Notes under the pieces: generated by a model
Told to the model about the DNA's origin: nothing
What the model saw: the letters and a program-made list of their open reading frames with translations, nothing else
Database searches by the model: none
In this document: positions 2,905 to 32,806 of the stretch, in pieces
How the letters are laid out: every line of letters begins with the position of its first letter
Position numbering within the stretch: position 1 is the stretch's first letter
UHGV virus genome: UHGV-0159523
Length of the DNA stretch: 32,971 bases
Strand: one strand, 5' to 3'
From: a virus
Made by a program: the position numbers and the translations under genes

Positions 2905-2966
2905 AATTTGTAGTGGTAGCCATTACCATTTGTAACTATATAAATTATTAGCATTAAGGTGATAAC

Positions 2967-3413: not shown

Positions 3414-3416
3414 GTT

Positions 3417-3447
3417 CAGGGGGGGGCGGCCCTCCCTGTTCGTCTTT
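3417..3447 (+). terminator. GC-rich hairpin between convergent moron and tape-measure genes (likely terminator)
   Basis: cagggggggg-cggc-cctccctg stem (about 9 bp, one G-U) followed by ttcgtcttt; lies between stop codons at 3413 and 3446. Confidence 0.3.
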
Positions 3448-9472: not shown

Positions 9473-9474
9473 AC

Positions 9475-9675
9475 TCAGCCCTCTTTACTGGTCGTGGCTT
9501 TTTTCTCTTTTGCCGCTTTACTGCTTTTTGCACTGATTCCGCGCTCTGCTAACCCGGCCTGAAGTGCAATCTCCTGCACCCGGGCAGGAAGCGCCCCGTC
9601 GTCATACTCACCGGCCTGAATGACCTCAACACGCATACCGTCCGGTGACCATTTCAGATCTTGTTTCAGGATCAT
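9475..9675 (-). CDS. Small hypothetical protein, 66 aa
   Basis: ORF track; fills the gap between major capsid gene and connector; Lys/Ala-rich C-terminus. Confidence 0.3.
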   Translation of the reverse strand: MILKQDLKWSPDGMRVEVIQAGEYDDGALPARVQEIALQAGLAERGISAKSSKAAKEKKATTSKEG

Positions 9676-9724
9676 GATTCTTCACCCGTCAGAACAGGGG
9701 GCGCGGTTCCGCGCCCCTGAGTGA

Positions 9725-10930: not shown

Positions 10931-10944
10931 CGTATTTCTCCTGA

Positions 10945-11631: not shown

Positions 11632-12814
11632 CGGAGGGTTTCGTGGTCATGTTCATCGGTGTGAGATAGACATCACCACCGGGACGCGGATTCATATCTT
11701 CCAGGTCGCGGCATTCATTGGGAGAGTAAATTCCCCAGTTGATCCCGGTGGCGTAGGCTTCAAAACGGGACTTCATATCCCCGCGCAGTAACGCCCCGGC
11801 GTTAAATTTGGCGTAATAAACGCCCTGCTTACTTTTTCGTACCAGTCCGGTGTTGATCCGCTGTTCGATGCGGGTCAGATACGGCACCAGTGAATAGTTG
11901 ATAAATCCCAGCCCCAGCTCTTCGATATTGTTGAAGGTGGCGCGATCGGTGTTCTGCACCATGTGCAACGGCACCCGGAACAGACGACAGATTTCTTCAA
12001 GCTGAAACTTGCGGGTTTCCAGGAACTGGCTGTCCTCGGCGTTCAGCGCCATCGACTTCCAGTCCAGCCCCATCTCAAGGATCATCGGGCGGTGAGCATT
12101 GCCAAGCCCGGTGTGACGCTCCTCAAAATCTTTCTTCAGGCGCTCATAAGCCTGATCTGACAGCGTCTGCTCTGTACGCAACACACCCGACGTCACCGCG
12201 CCATTGCTGAACAGTCTGGCCCCGTGTTCTTCGGTCGCTGCCGCCAGCGATATTGCCTCGCGGGCATAGGCGATGGGATTCAGCCCCACCAGTCCGTCCA
12301 GCGTCAGCGTGCGCACATGCCAGATATCCTCCTGGCTCAGTACATCCGTGGAGCCATCCGGGAATGTGACCTGATAGATCGGCTCCCAGCTACTGTTAAG
12401 CTTCGGTACCACACAGCCGGGATCGACGGGCAGCAGTTCAGCCACTTCGCCAAATGCTTTCACTTTGTAGGCGTAAAAGTTTCCCCTCAGGCACAGACAG
12501 GTGACCACCAGCTCCCAGAACTCCTGCGGCGTCATATAGCCATTGGGATGCGTGGAGATCAGCTTATGCAGACGTTCACCAGTGGCTCTCTGTTTCAGGC
12601 TGCCGTTCAGGTGATACAGATTGCAGGGCAACATCCCGACCGACTCTGCCAGCACCCTGACGCAGGAAAAAACCGCCGTCAGTCGCATGGCCCGCTGGCT
12701 GCTGATCTGCTTTCCGGTATAGGTGTCATATGACAGCCCGATAGCATCCGCCAGCTCTGCTGGCGTAGTCACCGGTGCGTCACTTTTTCGTTGAAATAAT
12801 CCCGAAAAGAACAC
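11573..12814 (-). CDS. Portal protein (HK97 family), 413 aa
   Basis: Size, position after terminase large subunit, and conserved portal-like sequence. Confidence 0.85.
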   Translation of the reverse strand: MFFSGLFQRKSDAPVTTPAELADAIGLSYDTYTGKQISSQRAMRLTAVFSCVRVLAESVGMLPCNLYHLNGSLKQRATGERLHKLISTHPNGYMTPQEFWELVVTCLCLRGNFYAYKVKAFGEVAELLPVDPGCVVPKLNSSWEPIYQVTFPDGSTDVLSQEDIWHVRTLTLDGLVGLNPIAYAREAISLAAATEEHGARLFSNGAVTSGVLRTEQTLSDQAYERLKKDFEERHTGLGNAHRPMILEMGLDWKSMALNAEDSQFLETRKFQLEEICRLFRVPLHMVQNTDRATFNNIEELGLGFINYSLVPYLTRIEQRINTGLVRKSKQGVYYAKFNAGALLRGDMKSRFEAYATGINWGIYSPNECRDLEDMNPRPGGDVYLTPMNMTTKPSDGSKAGKQKDNANADETTS

Positions 12815-17713: not shown

Positions 17714-17994
17714 TAGTGCCTCAGATGATCAACCAGACGTGCAACGTTGCCTCTGACAGCCACCAGCACGGAAAGAAAAATAGTGTTCGCCACGATAATG
17801 GGCCATGAGGAATGGGGATAAATCCCACAGAGATAGGCCAACGGAACAGCACTGTATGTAACAGTAATCAGCCAGGCTAAACGTGAAACCCACGGACGAT
17901 GCCGCGAATCACCACGACGATAAAACATCAGAGTAATAACAACACAAGCACATAACAGCGCATTAATAGTTGCTGTCGGGTCATTTAGCTCCAC
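17713..17994 (-). CDS. Small membrane protein in lysis cassette (second holin/antiholin candidate), 93 aa
   Basis: Two to three hydrophobic helices; between holin and endolysin. Confidence 0.45.
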   Translation of the reverse strand: MELNDPTATINALLCACVVITLMFYRRGDSRHRPWVSRLAWLITVTYSAVPLAYLCGIYPHSSWPIIVANTIFLSVLVAVRGNVARLVDHLRH

Positions 17995-18367
17995 CTGAAC
18001 CTCCCCGGCGCGTTATGAGCGCCACCAGCGAGCCGATATCCTGATTATTCAGGAACGTCAGGATTTTAACGGCTAAAGCAGAGACGATTACGGCACCAAT
18101 AGCATCCAGAGGTTTATCACTGTATCCGGTCAAGTTTGCCAGCTTGGAGCCAACCAATCCAGAGCAAAGGATCCCAGCAATATATGACACGATAAAATAT
18201 GCCAGTCGGCGCGATGCACTCAGATCTGCTGCTGTTGCTATATAGAATACAGCCCCTGCAAATGCGCCAAAAACAACGCCGTAATCAGTTCCGGTCAGCA
18301 GTCCATAAATACTAGCGCCCGTTAGGGCTCCACCAGCTAACCCTGTGCCGGAAATCGGATCGGACAT
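17981..18367 (-). CDS. Holin-like membrane protein, 128 aa from ATG 18367
   Basis: Strong SD AGAGGTG 4 nt upstream of ATG at 18365-18367; Gly/Ala-rich TM helices; first gene of lysis cassette. The ORF track's upstream start at 18433 lacks an SD. Confidence 0.55.
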   Translation of the reverse strand: MSDPISGTGLAGGALTGASIYGLLTGTDYGVVFGAFAGAVFYIATAADLSASRRLAYFIVSYIAGILCSGLVGSKLANLTGYSDKPLDAIGAVIVSALAVKILTFLNNQDIGSLVALITRRGGSGGAK

Positions 18368-18415
18368 TAGCCACCTCTTATTGCAGTGAGTCCTCTCAGA
18401 AATAGAAATGAGAGG

Positions 18416-18442
18416 AATAAAAAAGGCCACCATTTGGCAGCC
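18416..18442 (-). terminator. Rho-independent terminator at end of AT-rich cassette (before holin)
   Basis: Minus strand ggctgcc-aaat-ggtggcc hairpin (with G-U pairs) followed by TTTTTTATT. Confidence 0.4.
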
Positions 18443-18475: not shown

Positions 18476-19282
18476 CTATTTCTTAATGATGCTATTTAAC
18501 ATTTCTAATGCAAAAAGCAACATGGAGCTAATAAAATACAATATAACCGCACTGGCAATCGCTCCAATTATAGCCTGAACACTCCAGTGAAAGTAATTTT
18601 TACCATTAATAACAAACTTAACACTAGGAAACAAAAAGTCGATAAGCTTAATTATTAATGGAATAGCAAAGCTCCATAAGTTCGAAAACAAAATAAAGAT
18701 ACAAATAAATGATAAAGCAAATGCACCATCGATTGATAGTTTTGGCGCCAGTTTTGAGGCTGTCCATAAGCTAAGCAAAAAGCCAACTGTCACACCTGAA
18801 ATCTGGATACTTAACATAGTCCAAGCTGTTCTAAAAAATCTAAATTTATTTTTGCACTTGTTAAGTAAATCCTGAATCGTAATCCATAACGAGTCAACCC
18901 ACTCATTATCTTCCGATGCTACAATCATTGTGCTGCTATTTGAATTCCTCTCATCAATTCGTAGCTCCATCCAAGATCCATTCATCCTGTTAGACTGTCG
19001 ACTTTGATAAGTTTCAATAGTAAAAATTATTTGATCAATCCTAGTGGCCTGTCTAAAGTATTTCACAAGCTCACCGATAGAATCAACTTTATACCCCTTA
19101 CCATCGAACAAAATAAAAAAAACACATTGAGCACAAACTTCCCTACTTTCCTTTTGAGCTTGCTCATTCATTTTAACGCAGCGTTCGACAATTGCCGTGC
19201 TTAAGCTAATCAAGCTATCTTCATTTATAGAAACACCTGAAATATTCTTGCTTCTGTAAAAATATGACACTTTCGATTCCAC
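18476..19282 (-). CDS. Moron: membrane protein with about 155-aa N-terminal soluble domain and three C-terminal TM helices, 268 aa (GTG start)
   Basis: Long ORF in strongly AT-rich DNA; hydrophobic segments near residues 160-185, 195-227, 240-265; no in-frame upstream ATG before a stop, so GTG at 19282. Confidence 0.55.
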   Translation of the reverse strand: MESKVSYFYRSKNISGVSINEDSLISLSTAIVERCVKMNEQAQKESREVCAQCVFFILFDGKGYKVDSIGELVKYFRQATRIDQIIFTIETYQSRQSNRMNGSWMELRIDERNSNSSTMIVASEDNEWVDSLWITIQDLLNKCKNKFRFFRTAWTMLSIQISGVTVGFLLSLWTASKLAPKLSIDGAFALSFICIFILFSNLWSFAIPLIIKLIDFLFPSVKFVINGKNYFHWSVQAIIGAIASAVILYFISSMLLFALEMLNSIIKK

Positions 19283-19963: not shown

Positions 19964-20716
19964 TTATCTCGTCACCCTTCTCAATTGTGCTTCAGCGTAA
20001 GCTTCCTCCTGCCAGCACTTTGTAACCAGTTTATCAATGACATCTGCATATCCTTTGTACCACTGATAATCCGTCAGGTCTGGTACCAGCTTCTGGACAT
20101 GAAGCCGCGCCAGTGTGGTTGGTAAACGGCTAAACCGGTTTCCATTGCAACGCCCACAAATCTTATAAACAGGCGTGCCATGAAGCCGGGTCCTTTTTTC
20201 ATCCAGGACAATACCTTTACCCTTACACCCTCTGCACGCGGTGCTGACTTCTCCCTTACCATGGCAATGCTGACATAGTTCCTTCACCCACTCTTCCTTG
20301 ATAACAGATTCCCCGCTTCTGGAGTGTTTCACCACTTCGCGCAATACATTATGAAATCCAGTACCAGCACAATGCTCACAGCGAGCCTTACTTGCCGCAG
20401 ACCTGGAATAATCAGCAAAGGCAAAATTCACAAGGTAAGGGATGATCTGTAACCGGGTTTCTTCACTCAATTTGTTCAATGTCGGGTTATCCAGTGCCAT
20501 CGCGTAATTGAACAGACCTTCAATCGCAAACTGAGGATCCTGAACACCAACTTTTGCCAGGAATAAGGCAAACCCAAGCGGTGCTTTCGACTGCACCATC
20601 CCCTGCGCAGCCATCACATCCGTAATCGTTAAACCACCTGAGCCTGTCGCCGGTGCGTCATCGCTCAATTTTGGAGATTTTGGGGAGTAATATTTTGGTA
20701 AGGCTTCAAGGTTCAT
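19964..20716 (-). CDS. Late-gene antiterminator Q-like protein, 250 aa from ATG 20716
   Basis: Cys-rich zinc-binding motifs (CEHCAGTG, CQHCHGKG, CRGCKGKG, CGRCNG); position immediately upstream of late leader/terminator and lysis genes; SD GGAGA before ATG 20714-20716. Confidence 0.7.
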   Translation of the reverse strand: MNLEALPKYYSPKSPKLSDDAPATGSGGLTITDVMAAQGMVQSKAPLGFALFLAKVGVQDPQFAIEGLFNYAMALDNPTLNKLSEETRLQIIPYLVNFAFADYSRSAASKARCEHCAGTGFHNVLREVVKHSRSGESVIKEEWVKELCQHCHGKGEVSTACRGCKGKGIVLDEKRTRLHGTPVYKICGRCNGNRFSRLPTTLARLHVQKLVPDLTDYQWYKGYADVIDKLVTKCWQEEAYAEAQLRRVTR

Positions 20717-20729
20717 GCTCGTTCTCCAC

Positions 20730-21701
20730 TTACGCCAGCACGCCAATTGCCTGCGCACGATCGATAAAACGAAATATCAGCTCCAGCTGGGAGCCATACT
20801 TCTCTTCAAATGCCACGGTATCCGCATGCAGCTCGTCGTGATGCTTTCTGCACAAAGGCAACACAAAGAGGTCATGCGCTTTTGTACCCATTCCACCCTG
20901 ACCGTGACCTATCAGGTGGTGGGGATCATCAGCAGGCTTTCCACAACATGCACACGGCTGTGTCTTAACCCAGCGGCGACGTTTTGGGCGTAACATAAAA
21001 GACTCCGGCGACTCCGGATCCACTTTCAGCGCCAGCACCTTTTTCGCCTTATCATGGATGATGCTGGTGGCAGGAATCGAAGGCACAAGGTCACTTTCCC
21101 GGGTGACAGACGGCACAACAGGCTTCGGTAATCTCAGTGCCTTACGGGCTGCACTTTCCGGTAAGGCATCCGCCAGGTCATTACGAATCAGCCACCAGCA
21201 CAGTTCCGGCATTGTCACAACGTGACTGTCATCAAAACCGAGATCCCGACGCACAACAGACAACACCCAGCGGGCACAGTTATCCGTTGCCATTGATTCC
21301 AGCCGTTCCGTGAACTGATCGCGCAGCTGGTTATCGCAGTGCCAGCACAGACGGATCGCGCCCGGCGCGTGTCGCATTGTGGTCATGTTCTCGCTGTGCC
21401 AGTCGGAATGAGGCCACTGACAGCCCTTTTCACGAAGTAACCAGCTTTCAAGACATTCCACGCCACCAGCACGACGGATCACTGCCTCATTGCAGAACAC
21501 GGCCCGAACGGCAGGATCATCCGCCAGCGGTTGTGATGCCGCGGGAACGGCACCACTGGCGAAAGATGAATAACGTTCCGGCTCAGGCTCCAGCAGGACA
21601 CGCCCCTGCATAAACAGGGGCATCAGCTCTGAACCGGGTCTGAACAATACGATCCCCATACGCGGGGCTATTTCAGTGGTCAGTAGTGCTCTCACGGTCA
21701 C
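20730..21701 (-). CDS. DUF968-family phage protein, 323 aa
   Basis: C-terminal Cys/His-rich segment CACCGKPADDPHHLIGHGQGG...CRKHHDELH; common lambdoid early-region gene. Confidence 0.55.
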   Translation of the reverse strand: MTVRALLTTEIAPRMGIVLFRPGSELMPLFMQGRVLLEPEPERYSSFASGAVPAASQPLADDPAVRAVFCNEAVIRRAGGVECLESWLLREKGCQWPHSDWHSENMTTMRHAPGAIRLCWHCDNQLRDQFTERLESMATDNCARWVLSVVRRDLGFDDSHVVTMPELCWWLIRNDLADALPESAARKALRLPKPVVPSVTRESDLVPSIPATSIIHDKAKKVLALKVDPESPESFMLRPKRRRWVKTQPCACCGKPADDPHHLIGHGQGGMGTKAHDLFVLPLCRKHHDELHADTVAFEEKYGSQLELIFRFIDRAQAIGVLA

Positions 21702-22921: not shown

Positions 22922-23244
22922 ACTTTCAGGCCCCTCTCATGTAACCAGTGGGTTGCACGCAGCCTTGCGTTTTCCTCACCGGCAAGCAGTGAGCGGATAA
23001 TCCCGACCGCCTCGCTGTCGTCGTCCTTCACCGCGGTATGAAGCGTGATGCCCCGGGCCACGCCACGCTTTATCGTGATGACGCCTTTTTTCTCCAGTGC
23101 GCGAAGATGCTCCACCGCTGCATTCACTGAACGGTATCCCAGCATGGTTGCCACCTCCTGATTGGTTGGCGGGAAGCCACGTTCTTTCTGATAAGAAATC
23201 AGCATATCCAGCACCTGCTGCTGACACTGAGTTAACGTCGTCAT
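22918..23244 (-). CDS. LexA N-terminal DNA-binding domain paralog lacking the S24 peptidase domain, 108 aa
   Basis: MTTLTQCQQQVLDMLISYQKERGFPPTNQEVATMLGYRSVNAAVEHLRALEKKGVI aligns colinearly with the E. coli LexA N-terminus as I recall it; no Ser/Lys dyad region; TAATG coupling to upstream gene. Confidence 0.65.
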   Translation of the reverse strand: MTTLTQCQQQVLDMLISYQKERGFPPTNQEVATMLGYRSVNAAVEHLRALEKKGVITIKRGVARGITLHTAVKDDDSEAVGIIRSLLAGEENARLRATHWLHERGLKV

Positions 23245-23738
23245 TAAGCCCCCACGTAATTCCCTGACAGATACCATTCATCACCCGATACAGCGCGCTT
23301 GCTGCTTTTCCGTAAGCACCGCTCTCGACGCGCCAGAAAGTTGTTTCGTTCTGGCTGGGAGTGACTTTCACGGAATGCCGCCATCCACACCGTTGCAGCA
23401 CGACGGTATAAGCCCCTGGACTCCAGCTCTTCAGCCTGGCGGGTCAGGCACAAAATCACCCGGGGATCGTTAGTGCCGACATAGAAATTGCGCACAGGTC
23501 TGGTTTCACGAACAGATTGTGGTTCCGGCTCCTGCGCTCTCTCAGTCAGGCGCGGGAAATGTCTGCGTGTATCTCCTTCACAACGGTGAGCCACACGCCC
23601 ACTCTGACGTAACTTGCTTGCTGACTGCAGAACGCGCTGCCGTGAGTAACCAGCAAAAGCATCTGCAATGTCTCCGGAAGTACAGCCCGGATGGGCTTCA
23701 ATGAATTTCTGAACGTCATTCAAAAGACTCATGATCAC
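23244..23738 (-). CDS. Hypothetical early protein with PerC-like C-terminal motif, 164 aa
   Basis: ORF track; C-terminal LYRRAATVWMAAFRESH...RRERC resembles the PerC-family pattern; assignment tentative. Confidence 0.4.
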   Translation of the reverse strand: MIMSLLNDVQKFIEAHPGCTSGDIADAFAGYSRQRVLQSASKLRQSGRVAHRCEGDTRRHFPRLTERAQEPEPQSVRETRPVRNFYVGTNDPRVILCLTRQAEELESRGLYRRAATVWMAAFRESHSQPERNNFLARRERCLRKSSKRAVSGDEWYLSGNYVGA

Positions 23739-24676
23739 CCCCTGAATCCTGCCGGGATCTGGCTGTAGTCCACGTTGCCGTAACTGGCTTTGAAGTACGG
23801 GTCTTCACGTTTTTCTGTGTGCGTGCTGACGGACGGCGATAAGCGCAGGGAAAGCTCATCCCATTTTTCCCGCAACTTCGACGGGCTGAGCACGTTACGG
23901 CACCAGAACGGATCGCGGCTGACGCGGCTGTACATCTCGCAGATTTGTTTGTGAGTACGACCATCCTGCACACACATCAGGCGAATTTCGTTTGCCCATG
24001 CTGTCCAGTTCGGTTCTTTGGGACGAACCACCTCGCCGTCACATTCGGCGGCCTGCTCGTACAGGGCAATGATTTTTTTCCAGAGCCACTGTGCGCAGGT
24101 CAAATCATCCTGCGTTCCCCACTGGCGCTTTTTAGGGCTGAATACAACCGCATCAGGATGGCGAGTTAAAAAATCCTGTTCAGCCGTCTGCGTGTCCGGT
24201 TGCGAAGCGTCCGGACGAGAAGGTTTTTTATCTGACGGATCATGTTTTGATTTTACTGACGGATCCCCGCCAGATTCTGACGGGTGAAAACCCGCTTTTT
24301 TGCCAGATTTCGACGCATCAAATTTTGACGGGTCAGATTTTGATGCGTCAGATTTTGACGGGTCAGAATCTGACAGTTGAGAAAATGCCGCTGCCTGAAG
24401 CTTCGCAACGTTAAGCTGATAAACATTCGACGCATTGCGGTTACCCTGGCGACGCGCCTTACGCGTTAACCAGCCTTCTGCTTCCAGCCGTGCGATAGCC
24501 GTTCTGACGGTACTCATCCCCGCGCCAATCTGGCGGGCAATGGTTTCAATTGATGGCCAGCACACACCTTCGTCATTACTGAAATCAGCCAAGCGGGCCA
24601 TAATTGCCACGCTGGATAATTTCATGCCTGACGCTGCGCAACCATCCCATACATAGCCGGTTAATTTAGTGCTCAT
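23735..24676 (-). CDS. Replication initiator, O-like (N-terminal wHTH, repeat linker, C-terminal domain), 313 aa
   Basis: N-terminal HTH (SIETIARQIGAGMSTVRTAIARLEAEGWL); internal peptide repeats SKSDASKSDPSKFDASKSG encoded by a DNA iteron array; SD AGAGG before ATG. Confidence 0.65.
   Translation of the reverse strand: MSTKLTGYVWDGCAASGMKLSSVAIMARLADFSNDEGVCWPSIETIARQIGAGMSTVRTAIARLEAEGWLTRKARRQGNRNASNVYQLNVAKLQAAAFSQLSDSDPSKSDASKSDPSKFDASKSGKKAGFHPSESGGDPSVKSKHDPSDKKPSRPDASQPDTQTAEQDFLTRHPDAVVFSPKKRQWGTQDDLTCAQWLWKKIIALYEQAAECDGEVVRPKEPNWTAWANEIRLMCVQDGRTHKQICEMYSRVSRDPFWCRNVLSPSKLREKWDELSLRLSPSVSTHTEKREDPYFKASYGNVDYSQIPAGFRG
24226..24379. repeat. Iteron array (putative origin of replication) inside the O-like gene
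   Basis: About eight copies of a 15-bp repeat (consensus agattttgacgggtc); four perfectly tandem between 24320 and 24379. Confidence 0.6.
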
Positions 24677-24685
24677 GACCGACCT

Positions 24686-25024
24686 CTATTTCCCTGAATT
24701 TACGACGAAACTGTTCGAGCGGGCTGAAGCACTCATGCTCATAGCCTTCACGGAGGTAGATAACCCGTTGTGTTTCCGGCTCCCAACGAATGACTCTGAC
24801 GGGCACTCCGTAGTGATCTTTGAACCAGCGGTTAACTTGTCGCAAAGGACTGTCTCCTTCTGCCGGTTGAAATCACCCACAGCCCACTCTGCAAAGCTGT
24901 GGGTTACAATTTCCCTGTCACCTGGTACATTTACTGCATAGCAATACTCCACCTTCGCTTTTCCACCCGGTACAGGAAGCGCAATCAGTTGCGAGCGACG
25001 GTAGTGTGTTGTTAAACTGTTCAT
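24686..25024 (-). CDS. Hypothetical early protein, 112 aa, translationally coupled to the upstream gene
   Basis: ATGA stop/start overlap at 25021-25024; the SD of the downstream O-like gene lies in its 3' end. Confidence 0.4.
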
Positions 25025-25572
25025 GCGTTAGTTTCTCCACAGTCACGACACGCCACGGCGCCCGGAGCTGCACACTCGCGGGCGTCACTCTTTTCTGGAG
25101 CGCAAAAGATTTTGTAGACCAGTGCTGCATGCTCCTGGAGCTTCGAAATTGACAGATACAACTCATCATTAATTGCTGTCTGCTCGTGTGGCTCCACTAC
25201 CCCATCTTCGATTGCCGAACGAATCTGCTTTGAGTAACTCCCGATCTGTTCGATGACTTCCAGCAGGCGCTGGTTTATATCGGCGTTCTCTACTTCCTCA
25301 ATTTCAGGAAGCGATACGAACACCCCACCAGCAGACTGTGCGACAGCATCCGCAATGTAGTGAGTGCCAGCTGCGCGCTGTAAAACCATTGCCCATCCCA
25401 GCGGGAAAATCTGATCGCCATCGGCACGAAGGCGGTTAAATAATGCGTTCTCTGTTACATCCAGCCAGTCAGCAGCTTCAGCGTAACCACCCGGCAACGC
25501 CGCGATAGTTTTTCTGACAGCTTTCACGTACCACTCAGGCTGTTTTTCTACTTTCCAGTGATGCTTACCCAC
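25021..25572 (-). CDS. Early regulatory protein candidate (CII-position), about 183 aa from GTG 25572; alternative ATG starts at 25650/25683
   Basis: GTG at 25570-25572 has strong SD GAGGAG 6 nt upstream and avoids overlap with Cro-like stop at 25601. Confidence 0.4.
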
Positions 25573-25600
25573 GGTTAACTCCTCGTTTCTGTGGTTACGT

Positions 25601-25864
25601 TTACGCAACTGAACCGCTAACTTTTGAATAGCACTCTGGTAATCCATCATTTGGATTTGGATAAATATCAGGACGCAGCTCATGGGGGGTTACGGACCAG
25701 TTCCCCAGCTCACAAAGTTGTAAAACTCGTTCCGACGGGACTTGATTGTTAATTACCCAATTAGCGACAGATTGAGTAGATTTAAAACCAAAGCGACGAG
25801 CTACTTCAGATAAAGACTTTCCCGCAGCCTTTACTGCTTTCTCGGTGTAGTTTTGAGATGACAT
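25601..25864 (-). CDS. Cro-like HTH repressor, 87 aa
   Basis: HTH KSLSEVARRFGFKSTQSVANWV; SD AGGAG; divergent from CI across a short operator region. Confidence 0.65.
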   Translation of the reverse strand: MSSQNYTEKAVKAAGKSLSEVARRFGFKSTQSVANWVINNQVPSERVLQLCELGNWSVTPHELRPDIYPNPNDGLPECYSKVSGSVA

Positions 25865-25896
25865 ATCTTTCTCCTCTGAAATCCAGAGGGGATAAT

Positions 25897-25934
25897 GCTA
25901 CTTAAAGTAGCGAATTGCAACTACTTAAAATAGA
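25897..25934. promoter_or_regulatory. OR-like operators: two copies of a 15-bp palindrome (gctacttaaagtagc and actacttaaaataga)
   Basis: First copy is a perfect odd-length palindrome; second is a near copy 23 bp away centre to centre; both lie in the 71-bp gap between divergent cro-like and cI starts. Confidence 0.55.
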
Positions 25935-25935
25935 A

Positions 25936-26676
25936 ATGACGAGCGTATGTGATGTGAGTAATCTTCTACCTATGGTAGAAGAACAGAAGTATCCAGATTT
26001 CGCCAAGAGACTAAACGAGTTAATGACAAACAAGGGAATTTCTGTCACCCAACTCAAAAGTCTTGTTGGCGTTACATATGAAATGGCGCGGCGATACACA
26101 ATCGGCGCAGCGAAGCCTCGTGCCTCTGTCATGAATAAACTTGCGTTGGCTCTGGGGGTATCGGCTTCATATTTAGAATATGGTGTTGGCGAGAGAGAAG
26201 GATGTAAGGAAATGGCAAGCATCCCCAATCCAACAAAACCCGACGTATACAGGATAGAAGTTTTAGATCTTAGCGTTAGCGCAGGACCTGGAACCTATAT
26301 GCTTTCAGACTATGTTGATGTGCTCTACGCCATTGAGTTCACAACAGAACATGCCCGTTCTCTTTTCGGTAACCGTTCTCAGGATGATATTAAGGTTATG
26401 ACTGTAAATGGCGATAGTATGTCCCCTACTCTCGTTTCCGGAGATCGACTGTTTGTCGACATTTCTGTTCGTCACTTCCAGACTGATGGAATTTACTCTT
26501 TCGTTTACGGTAAGACTTTTCATGTTAAACGTCTTCAAATGCAAGGTGACAAGCTAGCCGTTCTTTCGGATAACCCTGCCTATGAGAAATGGTACATCGA
26601 TGAAAAATCGCAGGATCAGCTTTATGTAATGGGCAAGGCGTTGATTCATGAGTCAATAAAATACAATCGGTTATAG
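25936..26676 (+). CDS. CI-like prophage repressor with C-terminal S24 (LexA-like) peptidase domain
   Basis: N-terminal HTH (FAKRLNELMTNKGISVTQLKSLVGVTYEMARRY); C-terminal VNGDSMSPTL and FHVKRL Ser/Lys dyad; ATG at 25936 may be leaderless, TTG at 25915 is the track start. Confidence 0.85.
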   Translation: MTSVCDVSNLLPMVEEQKYPDFAKRLNELMTNKGISVTQLKSLVGVTYEMARRYTIGAAKPRASVMNKLALALGVSASYLEYGVGEREGCKEMASIPNPTKPDVYRIEVLDLSVSAGPGTYMLSDYVDVLYAIEFTTEHARSLFGNRSQDDIKVMTVNGDSMSPTLVSGDRLFVDISVRHFQTDGIYSFVYGKTFHVKRLQMQGDKLAVLSDNPAYEKWYIDEKSQDQLYVMGKALIHESIKYNRL

Positions 26677-26691
26677 TTCTAAGGGCATATA

Positions 26692-27039
26692 ATGGCTAGT
26701 GAGCAGGGATTCGAAAAGATTAACATGGATATGTTGGTCTCTTATTTCTCAGAAAAGAATATATATCTAAAATGTACACTATGTGGACACGACAGATTGA
26801 CTGTGCCTCAAGTCAGCGCGAATGTGGGCATGCCATGTACTATGAAACTTGGTAGTTATGTGAATGTTTTTACTGAAAAAAGCATTTATTCTGATACTGC
26901 TAACCAGTATTACTTTTCACTAATATGCAACAATTGTGGAAATGAAATTCATATAAATGCGTTTTCAGTTTTGAACTGGGTAAATGAAAAGTTCCCAGCA
27001 AAAACGGAAGATGAAAAAAATGCCGACGCCGCAAAATAA
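26692..27039 (+). CDS. Small protein with two CxxC pairs (zinc-ribbon-like), 115 aa
   Basis: CTLCGH and CNNCGN about 50 residues apart; AT-rich; immediately downstream of cI on the same strand (rexA position). Confidence 0.5.
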   Translation: MASEQGFEKINMDMLVSYFSEKNIYLKCTLCGHDRLTVPQVSANVGMPCTMKLGSYVNVFTEKSIYSDTANQYYFSLICNNCGNEIHINAFSVLNWVNEKFPAKTEDEKNADAAK

Positions 27040-27391
27040 TGTAGTACCATTTAATAGTGAACTTCCCACAATTAGAAGACACGGTGGAGATGGCGGAGGT
27101 GATGACATGCTTGAAGCCCGAGTCGCTAAGTTAGAAGCGAATGTTGAGGATATAAAAACAAATCTCGCAGAGATGAGAGCTGACATTCGTGATTTGCGAA
27201 ACGCTCTCTCCGACACCCGACGCGATGTCGCTGTTATCCTTCAAAAACAAATAGATATAGATGAAAAGTTGTCAAAAAAACCTAGCCTAAGTGAAGTCAA
27301 CAGCGCTATTTCATCAGCCGTAAATAAACAGATCGCATGGACTGTTGCAACAGGCTTGGCGATTTTAGGTCTCGCCAAATTTATGTTTTGA
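27011..27391 (+). CDS. Coiled-coil protein with single C-terminal TM anchor (XhlA-like architecture); start 27011 or 27020
   Basis: Heptad-like charged region EARVAKLEANVEDIKTNLAEMRADIRDLRNAL followed by IAWTVATGLAILGLAKFMF at the extreme C-terminus; overlaps upstream gene end. Confidence 0.5.
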   Translation: MKKMPTPQNNVVPFNSELPTIRRHGGDGGGDDMLEARVAKLEANVEDIKTNLAEMRADIRDLRNALSDTRRDVAVILQKQIDIDEKLSKKPSLSEVNSAISSAVNKQIAWTVATGLAILGLAKFMF

Positions 27392-27696
27392 TAAGTTTTT
27401 GACTATGACCTGCCCTAGTTTTCTTACTATCGAGGCTAAATCACACAATCCATTGAGTAGTAAATTCCCTACCGTTTTACACTTAGCCTCCAAAAACTCA
27501 ACAATACTCTCATGATTGACTTCTCCCCACTTGATGATTAACTAGATCACATACTGATCTCAGCCACAATGAAACAATCCATCACGTTCTACAACTCAGC
27601 TAACTTCACAATATAATTTTTTGATCATAGCCCCAAAATATTTTACCTGTAAATTCAATGAATTAATTTCAAAATGCGTTTTTATGCCCTTAACTT

Positions 27697-27733
27697 CTAC
27701 TTTTTGTAGTTGATTTTTGCAACTTTAAGTAGC
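27697..27733. promoter_or_regulatory. OL-like operators: two copies related to the OR palindrome (ctactttttgtag, gcaactttaagtagc)
   Basis: Second site matches OR 15-mer at 13/15; first shares CTACTT...GTAG arms; 23-bp spacing as at OR; additional half-site aagtagc at 27774-27780. Confidence 0.45.
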
Positions 27734-27861
27734 AATATCATTTTACCGACAACGAACAGGCAGGACGCCCACGAAGTAGCCGCCTGGGGCATATGAAGTC
27801 CAGGATGATTCGTTGAGTCATGTTGTGCCACTAGGCACTCATGTTAAAGCAGGTGTATGAA

Positions 27862-28137
27862 ATGAAAGTCCAGATTTTAAACAATAACTGTGAAGTCGTT
27901 TGGTCATACGACATAGCCGCCCCTGTAGATCAGAGCGGCGATAGCTGGACCAATGGGAAACATCAGATTATGGCTGGAGTTGTGTTCTCTTTACGCCGTG
28001 CTTTGGAACAGGCTGAAGTATTTCCATCAGACCCTGAATGGAAATGGCCTTTTTCTATTTGTCCAAATTCGGAGAGCACATTTCAGAAAATTGGTCAGAA
28101 AGTCGCACTCGAAGAGCATCAGCCAACTGTTTCCTGA
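27862..28137 (+). CDS. Hypothetical early-left protein, 92 aa from ATG 27862
   Basis: SD AGGTG 7 nt upstream of ATG 27862; first ORF downstream of OL-like region; 3' end overlaps a convergent ORF. Confidence 0.35.
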   Translation: MKVQILNNNCEVVWSYDIAAPVDQSGDSWTNGKHQIMAGVVFSLRRALEQAEVFPSDPEWKWPFSICPNSESTFQKIGQKVALEEHQPTVS

Positions 28138-28300
28138 TTTTTTCAGGTAACTCGTCGGCATCGCAGAAACAACAACGCTCGATCATGTTGAAAGCCGATT
28201 CGTAGAACTGTTTCTGCTGAGTGTCGCTGAGACAGGAAAAGAGCGACGTTACGATGATTTTATTAATTGCATTATCAAGTTCTTTTTCATCAAAAGTCAT
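28055..28300 (-). CDS. Hypothetical small protein, 81 aa, antisense to the early-left operon
   Basis: SD AAGGA 7 nt upstream of ATG 28298-28300; Cys cluster ERCCFCDADE; overlaps the 3' end of 27862..28137 by 83 nt. Confidence 0.4.
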   Translation of the reverse strand: MTFDEKELDNAINKIIVTSLFSCLSDTQQKQFYESAFNMIERCCFCDADELPEKIRKQLADALRVRLSDQFSEMCSPNLDK

Positions 28301-28505
28301 TTGATTTTCCTTTTATGTATACGGGCTTAAAAGGATACCACCGAGCCTGAAGTGGTGAAAAGACAGGCACATAACAGCTAAGTATTTTCAACCAAAGAGA
28401 ATCCTTAGCGTTGTGGTGAATGCGGCTCAGCGCACGCGGGTTAAGGTTGAGGCTGACAGTCGACCTTCTGTGGATACCCACCCGTCTGGTGTGCAACCTT
28501 CGCCA

Positions 28506-28543
28506 GGCACCGGGAGGCACCCGGCACCCGGCACCCGGCACCA
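28506..28543. repeat. Tandem heptamer repeat GGCACC(C/G/A), five copies
   Basis: Read directly: ggcaccg gga ggcaccc ggcaccc ggcaccc ggcacca; within a GC-rich region lacking a convincing gene. Confidence 0.7.
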
Positions 28544-28751
28544 CAACTTTATGCTGTGTGTAGTCCTGGCGGTACCAGTTTGTACCCTTGCTTCCGGCTG
28601 GTACCGTCCTTTTTACAAAACAGAGAAGAGCATCACCGGACGACGGGCTCATAACCCAATCCAACCGGGCGGCTGCCACCGCAGGTGTTCTTCTCTGTTT
28701 TGTGGAGAAACTAATCGGCCTTGCAGGGTCGATATGATGAGGAGCAGCAAA

Positions 28752-29114
28752 ATGGCTAGCGAACGCAGTACTGATGTGCAGGCATTTATCGGGGAGCTGG
28801 ACGGCGGCGTATTTGAAACCAAAATCGGCGCAGTTCTCAGTGAAGTCGCTTCCGGTGTGATGAACACGAAAACCAAAGGTAAGGTCTCACTCAACCTGGA
28901 AATCGAACCATTTGATGAGAACCGTGTGAAAATCAAACACAAACTCTCATATGTTCGCCCGACTAACCGCGGGAAAATTTCCGAAGAAGACACCACCGAA
29001 ACGCCGATGTATGTCAATCGCGGTGGTCGCCTGACTATTCTGCAGGAAGACCAGGGACAATTACTGACTCTTGCCGGTGAACCTGACGGAAAACTCCGCG
29101 CAGCAGGTCATTAA
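28752..29114 (+). CDS. Hypothetical protein, 120 aa from ATG 28752 (size and position match CPS-53 YfdP as recalled)
   Basis: Strong SD GAGGAG 7 nt upstream of ATG 28752; the 113 in-frame upstream codons are Pro/Arg/Gly-rich and judged non-coding. Confidence 0.5.
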   Translation: MASERSTDVQAFIGELDGGVFETKIGAVLSEVASGVMNTKTKGKVSLNLEIEPFDENRVKIKHKLSYVRPTNRGKISEEDTTETPMYVNRGGRLTILQEDQGQLLTLAGEPDGKLRAAGH

Positions 29115-29179
29115 TATCGTTCTTAATTAACTGATTATTTATCTCATCACTGAATATCTTTATATAGTGAGGACTTATT

Positions 29180-30004
29180 ATGTCTCAGAACTTAGACGCA
29201 ACCGCAATTAATCAAATCCATGCCCTTATTTCTGCTCAGGGTGTTAATGAAATTATCAGTAAGATTGGTGCCGATGCTGTGGCATTGCCTGAGAATTTCC
29301 GCATTCATGATCTGGAAAAATTTAATTTAAATCGCTTCCGTTTCCGTGGTGCGCTTTCCACTGCCAGCATCGATGACTTTACCCGTTATTCTAAAGATCT
29401 TGCAGATGAAGGCACCCGCTGCTTTATCGATGCTGATAATATGCGTGCCGTCAGTGTGCTTAACCTGGGTACTATTGATGAACCAGGTCACGCAGATAAC
29501 ACCGCCACTCTCAAACTGAAAAAGACAGCACCGTTCTCTGCTCTGTTGTCTGTTAATGGCGAGCGTAACTCCCAGAAATCACTGGCAGAATGGATTGAAG
29601 ACTGGGCCGACTACCTTGTGGGCTTTGATGCTAATGGTGACACCATTCAGGCAACAAAAGCGGCTGCGGCGGTCCGTAAAATCACGATTGAAGCAAACCA
29701 GACCGCTGATTTTGAAGATAATGACTTCAGCGGCAAACGCTCCCTGATGGAGTCTGTCGAAGCGAAGACCAAAGACATTATGCCAGTGGCATTTGAATTT
29801 AAATGCATTCCGTTTGAAGGTCTGAAAGAACGTCCGTTTAAATTACGCCTCAGCATTATCACTGGCGATCGTCCGGTACTGGTTCTGCGCATTATTCAGC
29901 TGGAGGCGGTGCAGGAAGAAATGGCTAACGAATTTCGTGATCTGCTTGTTGAGAAATTCAAGGACAGCAAAGTAGAAACCTTTATTGGTACTTTCACCGC
30001 CTGA
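29180..30004 (+). CDS. yfdQ: DUF2303-type protein, 274 aa (YfdQ-like as recalled)
   Basis: 274-aa ORF followed by 178-, 120- and 101-aa ORFs, the size series I recall for CPS-53 yfdQ-R-S-T; recognition from memory, not a search. Confidence 0.6.
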
Positions 30005-30016
30005 TTTCATTACTGC

Positions 30017-30040
30017 AAATGCCCCTGCGGGGGCATTTAT
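30017..30040 (+). terminator. Perfect 9-bp stem hairpin between yfdQ-like and yfdR-like genes (attenuator/terminator-like)
   Basis: aaatgcccc-tgcg-ggggcattt perfect stem read directly; followed by at. Confidence 0.3.
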
Positions 30041-30131
30041 GGAAACGTAATTTACTCAATAATCGCCGGATGGTGAGGGATTCTTTTTACCAGAATTCAG
30101 CGCGGTGCAGCGCATATACGTGGAGAACAAA

Positions 30132-30668
30132 ATGTCATTTATTAAAACTTTTTCCGGGAAGCATTTTTATTATGACAGGATAAATAAAGATGACATCGAT
30201 ATTAACGATATTGCGGTTTCCCTTTCAAATATCTGTCGCTTTGCCGGTCATCTTTCGCACTTCTACAGCGTCGCCCAACATGCGGTTCTTTGCAGCCAGC
30301 TGGTGCCGCAGGAATTTGCTTTTGAAGCGTTAATGCATGATGCAACAGAAGCGTATTGCCAGGACATTCCCGCACCACTGAAACGCCTTCTTCCTGACTA
30401 TAAACAAATGGAAGAAAAAATAGACGCCGTAATCCGTGAGAAATACGGGTTACCCCCAGTTATGAGTACGCCCGTGAAATATGCCGATCTCATCATGCTG
30501 GCAACCGAACGCCGCGATCTCGGGCTTGATGATGGCTCTTTCTGGCCTGTACTGGAAGGTATCCCGGCAACAGAGATGTTCAACGTGATTCCACTGGCAC
30601 CGGGCCATGCCTACGGGATGTTTATGGAACGCTTTAACGAGTTATCGGAGTTACGCAAATGCGCATGA
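30132..30668 (+). CDS. yfdR: HD-domain phosphohydrolase-like protein, 178 aa (YfdR-like)
   Basis: SD GGAGA 5 nt before ATG 30132; His and HD motifs (RFAGHLSH, ALMHDATEAY); size matches YfdR as recalled. Confidence 0.65.
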   Translation: MSFIKTFSGKHFYYDRINKDDIDINDIAVSLSNICRFAGHLSHFYSVAQHAVLCSQLVPQEFAFEALMHDATEAYCQDIPAPLKRLLPDYKQMEEKIDAVIREKYGLPPVMSTPVKYADLIMLATERRDLGLDDGSFWPVLEGIPATEMFNVIPLAPGHAYGMFMERFNELSELRKCA

Positions 30669-31021
30669 ATGTTTTCGAAATGGAAGGGTTTCTTCGTGGG
30701 AGATGTGTACCGCGAGATCTGAAAGTAAATGAAACAGATGCTGAATACCTGGTGCGTAAATTCGATGCGCTTGAAGCTAAATGTGCAGCACAGGAAAACA
30801 AAGTAATACCAGTGTCAACTGAACTGCCACCAGCAAATGAAAGTGTTTTGTTATTCGATGCTAACGGAGAAGGCTGGCTAATTGGCTGGCGTTCTCTCTG
30901 GTACACCTGGGGACAAAAAGAAACCGGAGAATGGCAGTGGACATTTCAGGTCGGGGACCTTGAAAACGTCAATATCACTCACTGGGCAGTAATGCCAAAA
31001 GCACAGGAGGCTGGAGCATAA
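30659..31021 (+). CDS. yfdS: Trp-rich DUF551-type protein, 120 aa (YfdS-like)
   Basis: Overlaps upstream stop; motif GEGWLIGWRSLWYTWGQKETGEWQW; size and order match. Confidence 0.5.
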   Translation: MRMNVFEMEGFLRGRCVPRDLKVNETDAEYLVRKFDALEAKCAAQENKVIPVSTELPPANESVLLFDANGEGWLIGWRSLWYTWGQKETGEWQWTFQVGDLENVNITHWAVMPKAQEAGA

Positions 31022-31326
31022 TGACCACTTTTACCGACAAAGAACTGATTAAAGAAATTAAAGAGCGTATCAGCAGCCTTGACGTGCGAGACGATATTGA
31101 GCGCCGTGCTTATGAAATCGCACTCCTATCTCTGGAAGTAGAACCAGATGAACGCGAAGCTTATGAATTATTCATGGAAAAGCGTTTCGGTGACTTAGTA
31201 GATCGTCGGAGAGCAAAAAACGACGATAACGAATACATGGCATGGGATATGACTCTCGGTTGGATCGTCTGGCAGCAACGAGCTGGTATCCATTTTTCAA
31301 CAATGTCACAGCAAGAGGTGAAATAA
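31021..31326 (+). CDS. yfdT: Small acidic protein, 101 aa (YfdT-like)
   Basis: ATG overlaps upstream stop; size and order match the recalled CPS-53 cluster. Confidence 0.5.
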   Translation: MTTFTDKELIKEIKERISSLDVRDDIERRAYEIALLSLEVEPDEREAYELFMEKRFGDLVDRRRAKNDDNEYMAWDMTLGWIVWQQRAGIHFSTMSQQEVK

Positions 31327-31676
31327 TGGAGCCATACAGCCTCACACTCGATGAGGCCTGTCATTTTCTCAAGATATCCAGACCGACTGCCATTAACTGG
31401 ATACGCACAGGGCGTCTTCAGGCAACACGCAAAGATCCCACTAAGAATAAATCTCCTTACCTCACAACACGACAAGCCTGCATTGCGGCTCTTCAGTCTC
31501 CGCTGCATACTGTCCAGGTGAGCGCGGGTGATGGCATAACAGAGGAAAGAAAATGTCACTCTTCCGCAGAGGTGAAATATGGTACGCCAGTTTCACATTG
31601 CCGAACGGTAAAAGATTTAAACAGTCTCTTGGAACAAAGGACAAAAGGCAGGCGACAGAACTCCATGACAAGCTAA
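31326..31676 (+). CDS. xis: Excisionase (AlpA/MerR-type HTH), 116 aa
   Basis: SD AGAGGTG; N-terminal [35 protein letters not shown]-binding motif; immediately upstream of and overlapping int. Confidence 0.7.
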
Positions 31677-32716
31677 AGGCTGAAGCATGGCGGGTCAGCA
31701 AACTTGGTGAAATACCTGATATAACGTTCGAGGAAGCGTGTGTCAGGTGGCTTGAAGAGAAAGCACATAAAAAATCACTGGACGATGACAAAAGCCGGAT
31801 CGGATTCTGGCTTCAACATTTCGCAGGAATGCAACTAAGAGACATTACTGAATCAAAAATTTATTCAGCAATGCAGAAAATGACGAACCGGCGTCATGAG
31901 GAAAACTGGAAACTCAGGGCAGAAGCATGCAGAAAAAAAGGGAAACCTGTTCCAGAATACACGCCAAAACCAGCGTCCGTTGCAACGAAGGCTACGCATC
32001 TTTCATTTATAAAGGCCCTACTAAGAGCCGCAGAGCGTGAATGGAAAATGCTGGATAAGGCACCAATTATTAAAGTGCCCCAATCAAAGAATAAACGGAT
32101 CCGCTGGCTGGAGCCCCATGAAGCACAAAGGCTGATTGATGAATGTCCGGAACCATTAAAGTCTGTTGTTGAATTTGCACTGGCAACAGGCCTAAGACGC
32201 TCGAACATCATCAACCTTGAATGGCAACAAATAGATATGCAGCGCCGGGTGGCATGGATAAACCCGGAAGAGAGTAAATCAAACCGCGCAATTGGCGTTG
32301 CGCTGAATGATACTGCATGTCGCGTATTGAAAAAACAAATCGGGAATCATCACCGTTGGGTATTTGTGTACAAGGAAAGCTGTACCAAACCAGACGGAAC
32401 GAAAGCGCCAACAGTCAGGAAGATGCGGTATGACGCAAACACAGCCTGGAAAGCGGCGCTGAGACGGGCTGGTATTGATGATTTTAGATTTCACGACTTG
32501 AGACACACCTGGGCAAGTTGGCTGGTTCAAGCCGGAGTCCCGTTGTCAGTGTTACAGGAAATGGGAGGCTGGGAGTCTATCGAAATGGTTCGTCGATATG
32601 CTCACCTTGCACCTAATCACCTTACCGAACACGCACGGCAAATAGACTCGATCCTAAACCCATCGGTCCCAAATTTGTCCCAGTCAAAAAATAAGGAAGG
32701 TACTAATGATGTGTAA
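31553..32716 (+). CDS. int: Tyrosine integrase (phage-type site-specific recombinase), 387 aa
   Basis: N-terminal [21 protein letters not shown] typical of enterobacterial phage integrases; catalytic HDLRHTW box and RRYAHL tyrosine motif; ends 15 bp from the tRNA 3' end. Confidence 0.9.
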
Positions 32717-32730
32717 CTTATTGATTTAAA

Positions 32731-32806
32731 TGGTGCCGATAATAGGAGTCGAACCTACGACCTTCGCATTACGAATGCGCTGCTCTACCAACTGAGCTAT
32801 ATCGGC
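32731..32806 (-). tRNA. thrW: tRNA-Thr (anticodon CGU), thrW-type; prophage attachment site at its 3' end
   Basis: Reverse complement folds as a 76-nt tRNA ending in CCA with anticodon loop TT-CGT-AA; sequence matches E. coli tRNA-Thr(CGU) as I recall it. Confidence 0.9.

Follow-up and report, generated by a model that had tools for sequence, protein, structure and literature searches.

The closest described relatives of the genes treated here are yfdP, yfdQ, yfdR, yfdS, and yfdT (b2359 to b2363) of the cryptic prophage CPS-53 (KplE1) in Escherichia coli K-12. Noguchi and Katayama (2016) reported that multicopy yfdQ and yfdR, together with either yfdS or yfdT, form the minimal set that suppresses over-initiation of replication, and that the binding of purified YfdR to DnaA depends on Phe46 and is in competition with DiaA and DnaB (PMC4776307). 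The same authors pointed to open reading frames (ORFs) of Shigella flexneri phage SfV as homologues and suggested a role in phage growth (PMC4776307). In K-12, yfdPQ is given as an operon, and the host regulator SrsR binds 5' of yfdP and raises yfdP mRNA in stationary phase (PMC9181523). Here, we analyzed a yfdP-yfdT block in the virus genome UHGV-0159523, a stretch of 32,971 nucleotides (nt) that is referred to as the window throughout. We favor, with some confidence, the reading that this block occupies its usual early-left position between a repressor-controlled early-left promoter (pL) and the xis and int genes of an SfV-type lambdoid prophage at thrW, and that it serves to take over host replication initiation after induction.

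The presence of the cluster in this type of prophage is already known, and it is very common. Its occurrence in SfV was reportedly published as early as 2002. What the present analysis adds is modest: a deletion origin for the K-12 copy, an operator pair that defines pL, a yfdP-yfdQ cassette with a covarying stem-loop, and a solved YfdQ structure with 36 chains.

Relation to K-12 CPS-53 and phage SfV

According to a six-frame ORF list, five ORFs on the same strand exactly fill positions 28752 to 31326 (Table 1), each preceded by a GGAG/GAGG Shine-Dalgarno-like motif. Adjacent genes overlap by 10 nt (yfdR/yfdS), 1 nt (yfdS/yfdT), and 1 nt (yfdT/xis, TAATG). The ribosome-binding sites and the overlapping stop and start codons indicate that the gene set is real and operon-like. 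A first-pass annotation, made from the window's letters, had likened the cluster to yfdP-Q-R-S-T and matched the series of 274, 178, 120, and 101 amino acids (aa) to YfdQ, YfdR, YfdS, and YfdT. Comparison with the K-12 proteins bore out this assignment. Gapless alignments yielded 119/120, 270/274, 174/178, 114/120, and 96/101 identical residues for YfdP, YfdQ, YfdR, YfdS, and YfdT, respectively (95.0 to 99.2% identity), and this strong, full-length similarity excludes the outcome that the proteins are unrelated to those of CPS-53. All four YfdR substitutions relative to K-12 (K16R, V23D, R92Q, and D170E) lie outside the HD motif. RefSeq labels the matching genes yfdP, yfdQ, yfdR (5'-deoxynucleotidase), yfdS, and yfdT. 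At the DNA level, blastn returned a single collinear segment of 2,650 bp with 96.8% identity, connecting window positions 28733 to 31382 with positions 9586 to 12235 of the fetched K-12 locus. The order, spacing, and overlaps of the five genes are the same in both, and the hairpin 3' of yfdQ is identical. When positions 28400 to 31700 were used as a megablast query, the cluster region was found in 3,885 of 5,426 complete E. coli genomes (72%).

The two loci differ at their flanks. On the right side, the SfV-type xis of K-12 is cut after 17 codons, leaving ypdJ, with torI in its place; IntS of K-12 resides at argW, and the integrase of the window resides at thrW. Homology between the window and K-12 runs 57 bp into xis, and residues 1 to 17 of the SfV-type Xis are retained in ypdJ, where the xis start codon has mutated from ATG to ATA. 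Since ypdJ holds this remnant, K-12 must once have had an SfV-type xis. We detected no meaningful similarity between the integrase of the window and IntS (best BLASTP E value, 0.024) or, at the sequence level, between the window's Xis and TorI, in agreement with the earlier remark that integrase type and tRNA site differ from those of K-12. On the left side, positions 8385 to 9587 of the fetched K-12 locus correspond to window positions 23241 to 24443 at 97.3% identity, and the next K-12 base resumes at window position 28733 (blastn). The 4,289 bp in between span the 5' part of the replication gene, the cro-like gene, cI, two genes behind cI, oL/pL, the orf33-like gene, and a structured region. 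In K-12, where immunity region, pL, orf33-like gene, and structured region are gone, the truncated replication gene yfdO borders directly on yfdP. The xis relic on the right and the deletion junction on the left argue that CPS-53 is the derived form, namely, a window-like prophage in which a clean 4,289-bp deletion has joined the replication-gene repeats to yfdP.

These repeats, located inside the O-like replication gene, follow one another at an exact spacing of 15 bp (CCAGATTCTGAC, CCAGATTTCGAC, TCAAATTTTGAC, TCAGATTTTGAT, TCAGATTTTGAC, and TCAGAATCTGAC) and are probably origin iterons. A pattern search revealed that they are the published "SrsR boxes," which had been footprinted in the yfdO/yfdP spacer of K-12 (PMC9181523). 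As the deletion moved the replication-gene repeats beside yfdP, the regulation of the K-12 cluster by SrsR is a by-product of decay. All experiments relied on the K-12 cluster, from which the native promoter, operators, and repressor are missing, so that expression measured in K-12 tells little about how the cluster is naturally regulated.

The window itself is an SfV/SfII-like lambdoid prophage at thrW, and its structural genes are of the SfV/SfII/SfI type. Window positions 27749 to 32776 align with SfV positions 25605 to 20592 as one unbroken block (99.2% identity over 5,028 bp), which covers the stretch from the predicted early-left transcription start through yfdP-yfdT, xis, and int to the attachment region. 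Within positions 28700 to 31400, identity reaches 99.7% to SfV (orf32 to orf28 and xis) and 99.3% to SfIV in the phage records, making SfIV as close to the window as SfV. The proteins encoded by orf32 to orf28 of SfV (NC_003444) are 99 to 100% identical to those of the window, and xis, int, and the thrW attachment site are the same. Unlike in this shared block, the immunity region of SfV is of another type than that at window positions 25597 to 27749, the window has two extra genes between cI and pL, and its replication module resembles yfdO/yfdN of K-12 rather than SfV. In contrast to serotype-converting SfV, no gtr genes are present in the 33 kb of the window. SfV identity begins at position 27749, just past the predicted pL transcription start, which is where a swap of the immunity region should end.

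The yfdT-xis-int junction as found in the window occurs in 1,182 of the 5,426 complete E. coli genomes (at least 80% coverage), compared to 390 for the yfdT-ypdJ-torI junction of K-12, and is thus about three times more common. One SfV-identical block and a common junction are at odds with the proposal of the first-pass annotation that the cluster had been grafted between the immunity region and xis/int, beside a foreign integrase; it is the K-12 copy that is rearranged. The accompanying idea of a module exchanged between prophages fared better, as phage comparisons and published work describe a mosaic distribution of the module among lambdoid phages (PMC12315714).

Table 1. Features of the window, ordered by position
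Feature	Positions	Strand	Remarks
Six iteron-like 12-bp repeats	24270-24374		YCARAWTYYGAY, 15-bp spacing; inside O-like replication gene (23735-24676, -)
Segment absent from K-12 CPS-53	24444-28732		4,289 bp; blastn breakpoints
cro-like gene	25601-25864	-	87 aa; divergent from cI; counterpart in matching genome annotated as YdaS-family helix-turn-helix (HTH) protein
oR	25898-25933		13-bp palindromes CTACTTAAAGTAG and CTACTTAAAATAG, starts 23 bp apart; bracket TTGCAA-17-CATTAT (pR) on the minus strand
cI-type repressor gene	25972-26676	+	HTH_3 (Pfam E value, 1.8e-5) and Peptidase_S24 (E value, 7e-17); start codon uncertain
oL/pL (predicted)	27697-27738	+	Palindromes CTACTTTTTGTAG (27697) and CAACTTTAAGTAG (27720), starts 23 bp apart; bracket -35 TTGATT (27710-27715) and -10 CAATAT (27733-27738)
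First early-left ORF	27841-28137	+	98 aa; equivalent of SfV orf33; phrog_3195
GC-rich structured region	28415-28615	+	Between first early-left ORF and yfdP
yfdP-like	28752-29114	+	120 aa; PF27127, phrog_204; 99.2% identity to K-12 YfdP, 100% to SfV orf32
yfdQ-like	29180-30004	+	274 aa; DUF2303/PF10065; 98.5% identity to K-12 YfdQ, 100% to SfV orf31
Stem-loop	30017-30038	+	RNA AAAUGCCCC-UGCG-GGGGCAUUU (DNA AAATGCCCC-TGCG-GGGGCATTT); perfect 9-bp stem, 5 G-C pairs, -15 kcal/mol
Second stem-loop, yfdR leader	30063-30076	+	UCGCC-GGAU-GGUGA, followed by T-run GGGATTCTTTTT in this window only
yfdR-like	30132-30668	+	178 aa from ATG; 97.8% identity to K-12 YfdR; HD-domain 5'-deoxynucleotidase type
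yfdS-like	30659-31021	+	120 aa; C-terminal half DUF551-like; 95.0% identity to K-12 YfdS
yfdT-like	31021-31326	+	101 aa; 95.0% identity to K-12 YfdT
xis, SfV-type excisionase	31326-31676	+	116 aa; HTH_17; first 17 codons persist in K-12 ypdJ
int, tyrosine integrase	31553-32716	+	387 aa from first ATG; no sequence-level kinship to K-12 IntS
thrW, tRNA-Thr(CGT), attachment site	32731-32806	-	Directly 3' of integrase gene; proA next in matching genome

Predicted early-left promoter and the proposed action on DnaA

By its domain content, the cI-type repressor is predicted to be of the self-cleaving, SOS-inducible type. Palindromes of the type CTACTTnnnGTAG, allowing at most one mismatch, were found in the 33 kb only at positions 25898, 25921, 27697, and 27720 and, as a weaker copy, at 25966. 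The regions of pR and pL align element for element (palindrome, TTGnnn, palindrome, and CAnTAT) with 17-bp spacing. From this arrangement we infer that pL is located at positions 27710 to 27738, with transcription starting near 27745. The oL pair matches oR in sequence type and in spacing, so repressor binding to both is predicted, and the yfdP-yfdT block lies 3' of what would be a repressor-controlled promoter.

In a lysogen, the block would be silent. SOS induction would lead to cleavage of the repressor, after which pL would fire and the operon would be transcribed toward xis and int. YfdR would then bind domain I of DnaA in competition with DiaA and DnaB and, aided by YfdQ plus YfdS or YfdT, lower initiation at oriC, thereby diverting the host replication machinery to the phage. 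This mechanism was derived from the K-12 experiments and from the genomic position of the block, and the proposed action of the window's own YfdR on DnaA is extrapolated from its 97.8% identity to the tested protein. The DnaA and overexpression results that the first-pass annotation mentioned agree with the publication (PMC4776307). The outcome proposed for YfdR, a small protein binding the host initiator and lowering oriC firing, is the same as with lambda P and Bacillus subtilis SirA, which bind DnaA and block initiation, and both SirA and YfdR need the equivalent phenylalanine of DnaA domain I (PMC4776307). YfdR differs from them in being an HD-domain protein of the enzyme type that requires YfdQ and YfdS or YfdT in vivo, and no kinship in sequence or fold is expected. 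An inducible SfV-type prophage would be the right system for asking whether the DnaA effect is physiological.

It should be noted that several points weigh against a takeover of replication initiation. The effect on DnaA was seen only under multicopy expression, a yfdQRST deletion had no initiation phenotype, and the authors themselves considered an overexpression artifact possible (PMC4776307). The predicted pL matches the sigma-70 consensus at 7 of 12 positions and escaped the consensus scan. A terminator-like element (positions 28570 to 28615) sits between pL and yfdP, so that transcription would have to pass it by read-through or antitermination, and we identified no N-like factor. Fold searches with the structural models gave no informative neighbor for YfdQ (predicted local distance difference test [pLDDT] score of 78) and no neighbor for YfdP (pLDDT score of 68).

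The HD-domain character of YfdR, which the first-pass annotation had also recognized, raises a different possibility. H50 and H69-D70 are present, the KxAD motif aligns at D119, and the protein matches the HD protein Atu1052 (PDB 2gz4) with an E value of 3.3e-14. Signature and match together place YfdR in the HD-domain metal-dependent phosphohydrolase family, judging from its sequence. Over its full length, it also matches the PHROG deoxynucleoside monophosphate (dNMP) phosphatase family phrog_318 (E value, 3e-110). The module could thus be a helper of nucleotide and DNA metabolism, in which YfdR reshapes the precursor pool as a dNMP phosphatase, YfdP and YfdQ act on DNA in recombination, repair, or end protection, and the DnaA interaction is incidental. 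We regard this as possible, though unlikely. The score of YfdR against the Pfam YfbR-like family (25.0 bits) falls just below the cutoff of 25.9, and with 20.5 bits against a cutoff of 122 for NCBIfam NF003009, YfdR is not a YfbR equivalog but a distant relative. This large shortfall is consistent with the reported nucleotide affinity of YfdR, which is much lower than that of YfbR (cited in PMC4776307), and argues against a role in shaping the nucleotide pool.

Genomic position and phenotypes bear on the same alternative from both sides. The module occupies the position of lambda exo-bet-gam and is present in lambdoid phages without any known Rec module, such as LLS and ST64B, but it also occurs in ArgO145, which has a complete Rec module (PMC12315714). 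In Xanthomonas CP2-like phages, the yfdP-yfdQ homologues lie just 5' of genes for a 511-aa protein, Erf, an exonuclease, and a single-stranded DNA-binding protein (SSB), which fits a role in DNA metabolism; however, CP2 thereby has an Erf of its own. yfdQ mutants of K-12 are weakly sensitive to methyl methanesulfonate and H2O2 (cited in PMC4776307). The models of YfdQ and YfdP, on the other hand, resemble no annealase, nuclease, or SSB fold. Taken as a whole, replication takeover by way of DnaA remains our preferred reading.

Further searches with the block's proteins added little about their function. Residues 50 to 115 of YfdS scored 17.7 bits against DUF551/PF04448 (cutoff, 22), and the full-length protein matched phrog_583 (E value, 5.6e-82). 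The first approximately 50 aa of YfdT are common to other early-left phage protein families. NCBIfam holds no family for YfdP, YfdQ, YfdS, or YfdT, and the PADLOC defense-system models matched none of the five proteins. A literature search for PF10065, COG5532, PF27127, and the related PHROG numbers returned nothing. In the model, YfdP has one helix packing against a three-stranded sheet, and its conserved tail is left unmodeled. The yfdR ORF opens upstream at a GTG codon (position 30105), which would give an alternative product of 187 aa.

The yfdP-yfdQ pair and the stem-loop behind it

To describe the architecture of the module, 78 loci were compiled: 70 came from a scan in which each species was represented by one genome, seven came from phages, and the remaining one is that of the window. 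A scan of IMG/VR with a YfdQ alignment returned only copies with 99 to 100% identity and was used for context counts only; diversity was provided by the species-representative scan. yfdP is located directly 5' of yfdQ in 77 of the 78 loci, the lone exception being interrupted by a contig end. The pair reaches Pseudomonas, Alcanivorax, beta-proteobacteria, and Xanthomonas CP2-like phages (positions 2639 to 3892 of the phage CP2 record). yfdR follows within 150 nt 3' of yfdQ in 45 of 60 distinct loci, and yfdS and yfdT are confined to E. coli and Shigella copies among the loci examined. Similarly, yfdP, yfdQ, and yfdR are constant in the 80 viral contigs from IMG/VR, and yfdS, yfdT, xis, and int vary, with TorI following in two.

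The same order of yfdP, yfdQ, and yfdR, placed after the repressor gene and before variable early genes, is found as a triplet in other lambdoid phages (ST64B sb37 to sb35, LLS gp39 to gp37, cdtI, mEp460, and Stx2c phages), and a hairpin is present at the same spot after yfdQ. The proteins of ST64B-type phages are just 55 to 69% identical to those of the window, with yfdS and yfdT replaced by other small genes (DUF262 and Ea22-like). SfII and SKA5 lack yfdP-yfdQ altogether; there, sequence equivalent to position ~28713 is joined to that at ~30021, the second point being in the hairpin loop. Across these loci, the conserved unit consists of yfdP-yfdQ and the covarying stem-loop, which yfdR frequently accompanies; yfdS and yfdT are exchangeable add-ons. 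A unit smaller than the named cluster narrows where function should be sought.

YfdQ is a clear member of DUF2303/PF10065, with residues 7 to 272 covering profile positions 2 to 269 of 269 (307.7 bits; cutoff, 26.6; E value, 8e-92). It matches PDB 9o7m, entitled "YfdQ Protein," over residues 16 to 273 (E value, 1.9e-44; ~38% identity). This entry contains 36 chains of one sequence and derives from a Xanthomonas CP2-like phage that has its own Erf, exonuclease, and SSB genes and in which a yfdP homologue (39% identity) again lies ahead of the source gene. Fold searches, whose library held entries released up to 8 April 2026, did not return 9o7m. No paper on it was found, and the structure is apparently unpublished. 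A solved YfdQ homologue could guide experiments.

The hairpin begins 13 nt past the yfdQ stop codon, and the perfect stem noted in the first-pass annotation is real (Table 1). ST64B, Kp4866-6, Eeyore, and Flotzy (~68% DNA identity) carry AAAUCCCCG-GCGCCG-CGGGGAUUU at the same place, which amounts to two pair swaps. We collected 47 different hairpins across Enterobacterales, always on the coding strand and 5 to 30 nt 3' of the yfdQ stop codon. RNAalifold gave the same helix, with compensatory changes in seven of eight predicted pairs. For a 10-pair helix in 59 distinct sequences, 94.2% of the alignment cells were paired, compared to 39 to 54% with slid partners, and eight of the 10 pairs changed on both sides. 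The covariation score was 0.393 versus 0.144 in shuffles and was reached by none of 500, although this shuffle control overstates the significance since the hairpin sequences are related. Judged by the slid controls and by how varied the pair types are, the hairpin is clearly best read as a conserved RNA structure.

The first-pass annotation had further proposed that the hairpin could attenuate expression of the HD-domain gene. This part is plausible but unproven. The hairpin is present without a nearby yfdR in 15 of the 60 distinct loci; it is thus part of the yfdQ 3' end rather than an attenuator specific to yfdR. Classical intrinsic termination is doubtful in view of the weak T-run: the GC core is followed by four T residues in 8 nt, the consensus terminator scan made no call, and a T-run of at least five in eight occurs in only eight of 60 distinct homologues. 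Termination is favored, on the other hand, by the record of phage Ayreon, which annotates a terminator at the hairpin position, and by the listing of yfdPQ as a unit of transcription in K-12 (PMC9181523). We read the hairpin as a weak terminator and/or a stem that stabilizes the 3' end, which would lower but not abolish transcription into yfdR-yfdS-yfdT-xis-int. In the takeover scenario, it would most likely mark or stabilize the 3' end of the yfdPQ transcript, with only part of the transcription continuing into the genes that follow.

Alternatively, the stem-loop could have no part in transcription signaling and be conserved for cassette exchange, as a module boundary, a sequence for recombination, or a site at which a protein binds RNA or DNA. 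The homology break of SfII and SKA5 exactly in the hairpin, the weak T-run in most homologues, and a GAAGCG motif that is conserved 3' of the stem are in line with this proposal. However, compensatory changes preserve the pairing of a drifting sequence, as expected for a folded RNA, whereas a recombination target would keep its sequence, and the constant distance to the stop codon on the coding strand points the same way. We therefore consider a boundary function quite unlikely and retain the interpretation as an RNA structure at the yfdQ 3' end.

The yfdQ-yfdR gap contains additional structure. ST64B, Kp4866-6, Eeyore, and SfII share the second stem-loop, both its sequence and its pairing. 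A further stem-loop of the form GCGC-N6-GCGC was noticed near positions 30102 to 30115. A search of the gap for an internal yfdR promoter yielded no plausible -35/-10 pair with acceptable spacing.

A bolder and tentative view is that YfdP and YfdQ form an obligate two-protein phage device, distributed from enterobacterial lambdoid to Xanthomonas phages, in which YfdQ would assemble into a very large homo-oligomer. In enterobacteria, the device would act with YfdR to seize DnaA, and the stem-loop would be an RNA switch that sets the ratio of the cassette to yfdR-xis-int. If this were true, the cluster would be a widespread, uncharacterized host-takeover module instead of prophage leftovers.

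The structured region upstream of yfdP and other features of the window

The weakest proposal, that the cluster is cargo expressed from the prophage for the benefit of the lysogen in oxidative or acid stress, can draw on the raised H2O2 sensitivity of K-12 yfdQ or yfdS deletion strains (cited in PMC4776307 and PMC9181523), on the SrsR effect in stationary phase (PMC9181523), and on retention of the cluster in 72% of complete E. coli genomes, but it is very improbable because the block lies 3' of an operator-flanked pL and is tightly joined to xis-int, as befits a repressed early-gene position, because the SrsR sites of K-12 are replication-gene repeats brought in by the 4.3-kb deletion and do not apply to the window, and because the consensus scan revealed no sigma-70-like promoter between positions 28615 and 28752.

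The GC-rich region that separates yfdP from the first early-left ORF folds into a multibranch structure (z score, -1.95), in which a 9-bp closing helix surrounds several hairpins, and ends in a strong hairpin followed by UCCUUUUU. This end, a 9-bp inverted repeat (28570 to 28578 and 28598 to 28606) followed by TCCTTTTT, looks terminator-like. STnc100 is a prophage small RNA (sRNA) family. Its Rfam model (RF02076) scored 27.8 bits at positions 28415 to 28528 (E value, 0.0027), below the gathering threshold of 47 bits, and the equivalent places of SfII and ST64B gave 39.5 and 35.1 bits, respectively, both also below this threshold. Based on these scores, the segment would be a relative of STnc100 at best. 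Paired antitermination sites of the nut or put type were considered but are unsupported, as the STnc100-like motif has one copy in the window.

This region also contains GGCACCC as a perfect tandem repeat of 3.9 units (positions 28516 to 28542). Over the query, the best-matching genome (strain XJ55) falls 14 bp short, a difference that would agree with two units fewer, and SfII has approximately two. The tract may be prone to slippage, altering the RNA structure or a reading frame. Equivalents of positions 28415 to 28615 are annotated as a "frameshifted hypothetical protein" in XJ55 by RefSeq and as a 112-aa protein in the SfII record; the region may be a noncoding RNA and not a gene.

Several other features were noted in passing. 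Two genes directly 3' of cI and before pL (26692 to 27039 and 26984 to 27391) are absent from SfV and occupy the position of lambda rexA/rexB. They encode a Cys-rich protein of 115 aa with a weak CpXC match and a protein of 135 aa whose C terminus is hydrophobic and for which a coiled coil is predicted; their PADLOC matches are only faint. The two genes are candidates for exclusion or defense genes expressed in the lysogen. An ORF of 81 aa (28055 to 28300, minus strand), which overlaps the orf33-like gene at its 3' end in antisense orientation, matches phrog_3311 over its full length (E value, 1e-55). A promoter-like site is located on the minus strand (28300 to 28271), and the ORF may be a real convergent gene inside the early-left operon.

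Another ORF, of 268 aa (18476 to 19282, minus strand), has no Pfam match and lies in the stretch with the lowest GC content of the window (36 to 41%). It is located between the Q antiterminator gene (19964 to 20758) and the holin gene (17981 to 18433), the usual slot for late-promoter cargo. At the edge of the window, positions 1 to 59 of the minus strand match the Hfq-binding sRNA isrC in Rfam with 59.7 bits, above the gathering score, the match being partial and ending at the window edge.

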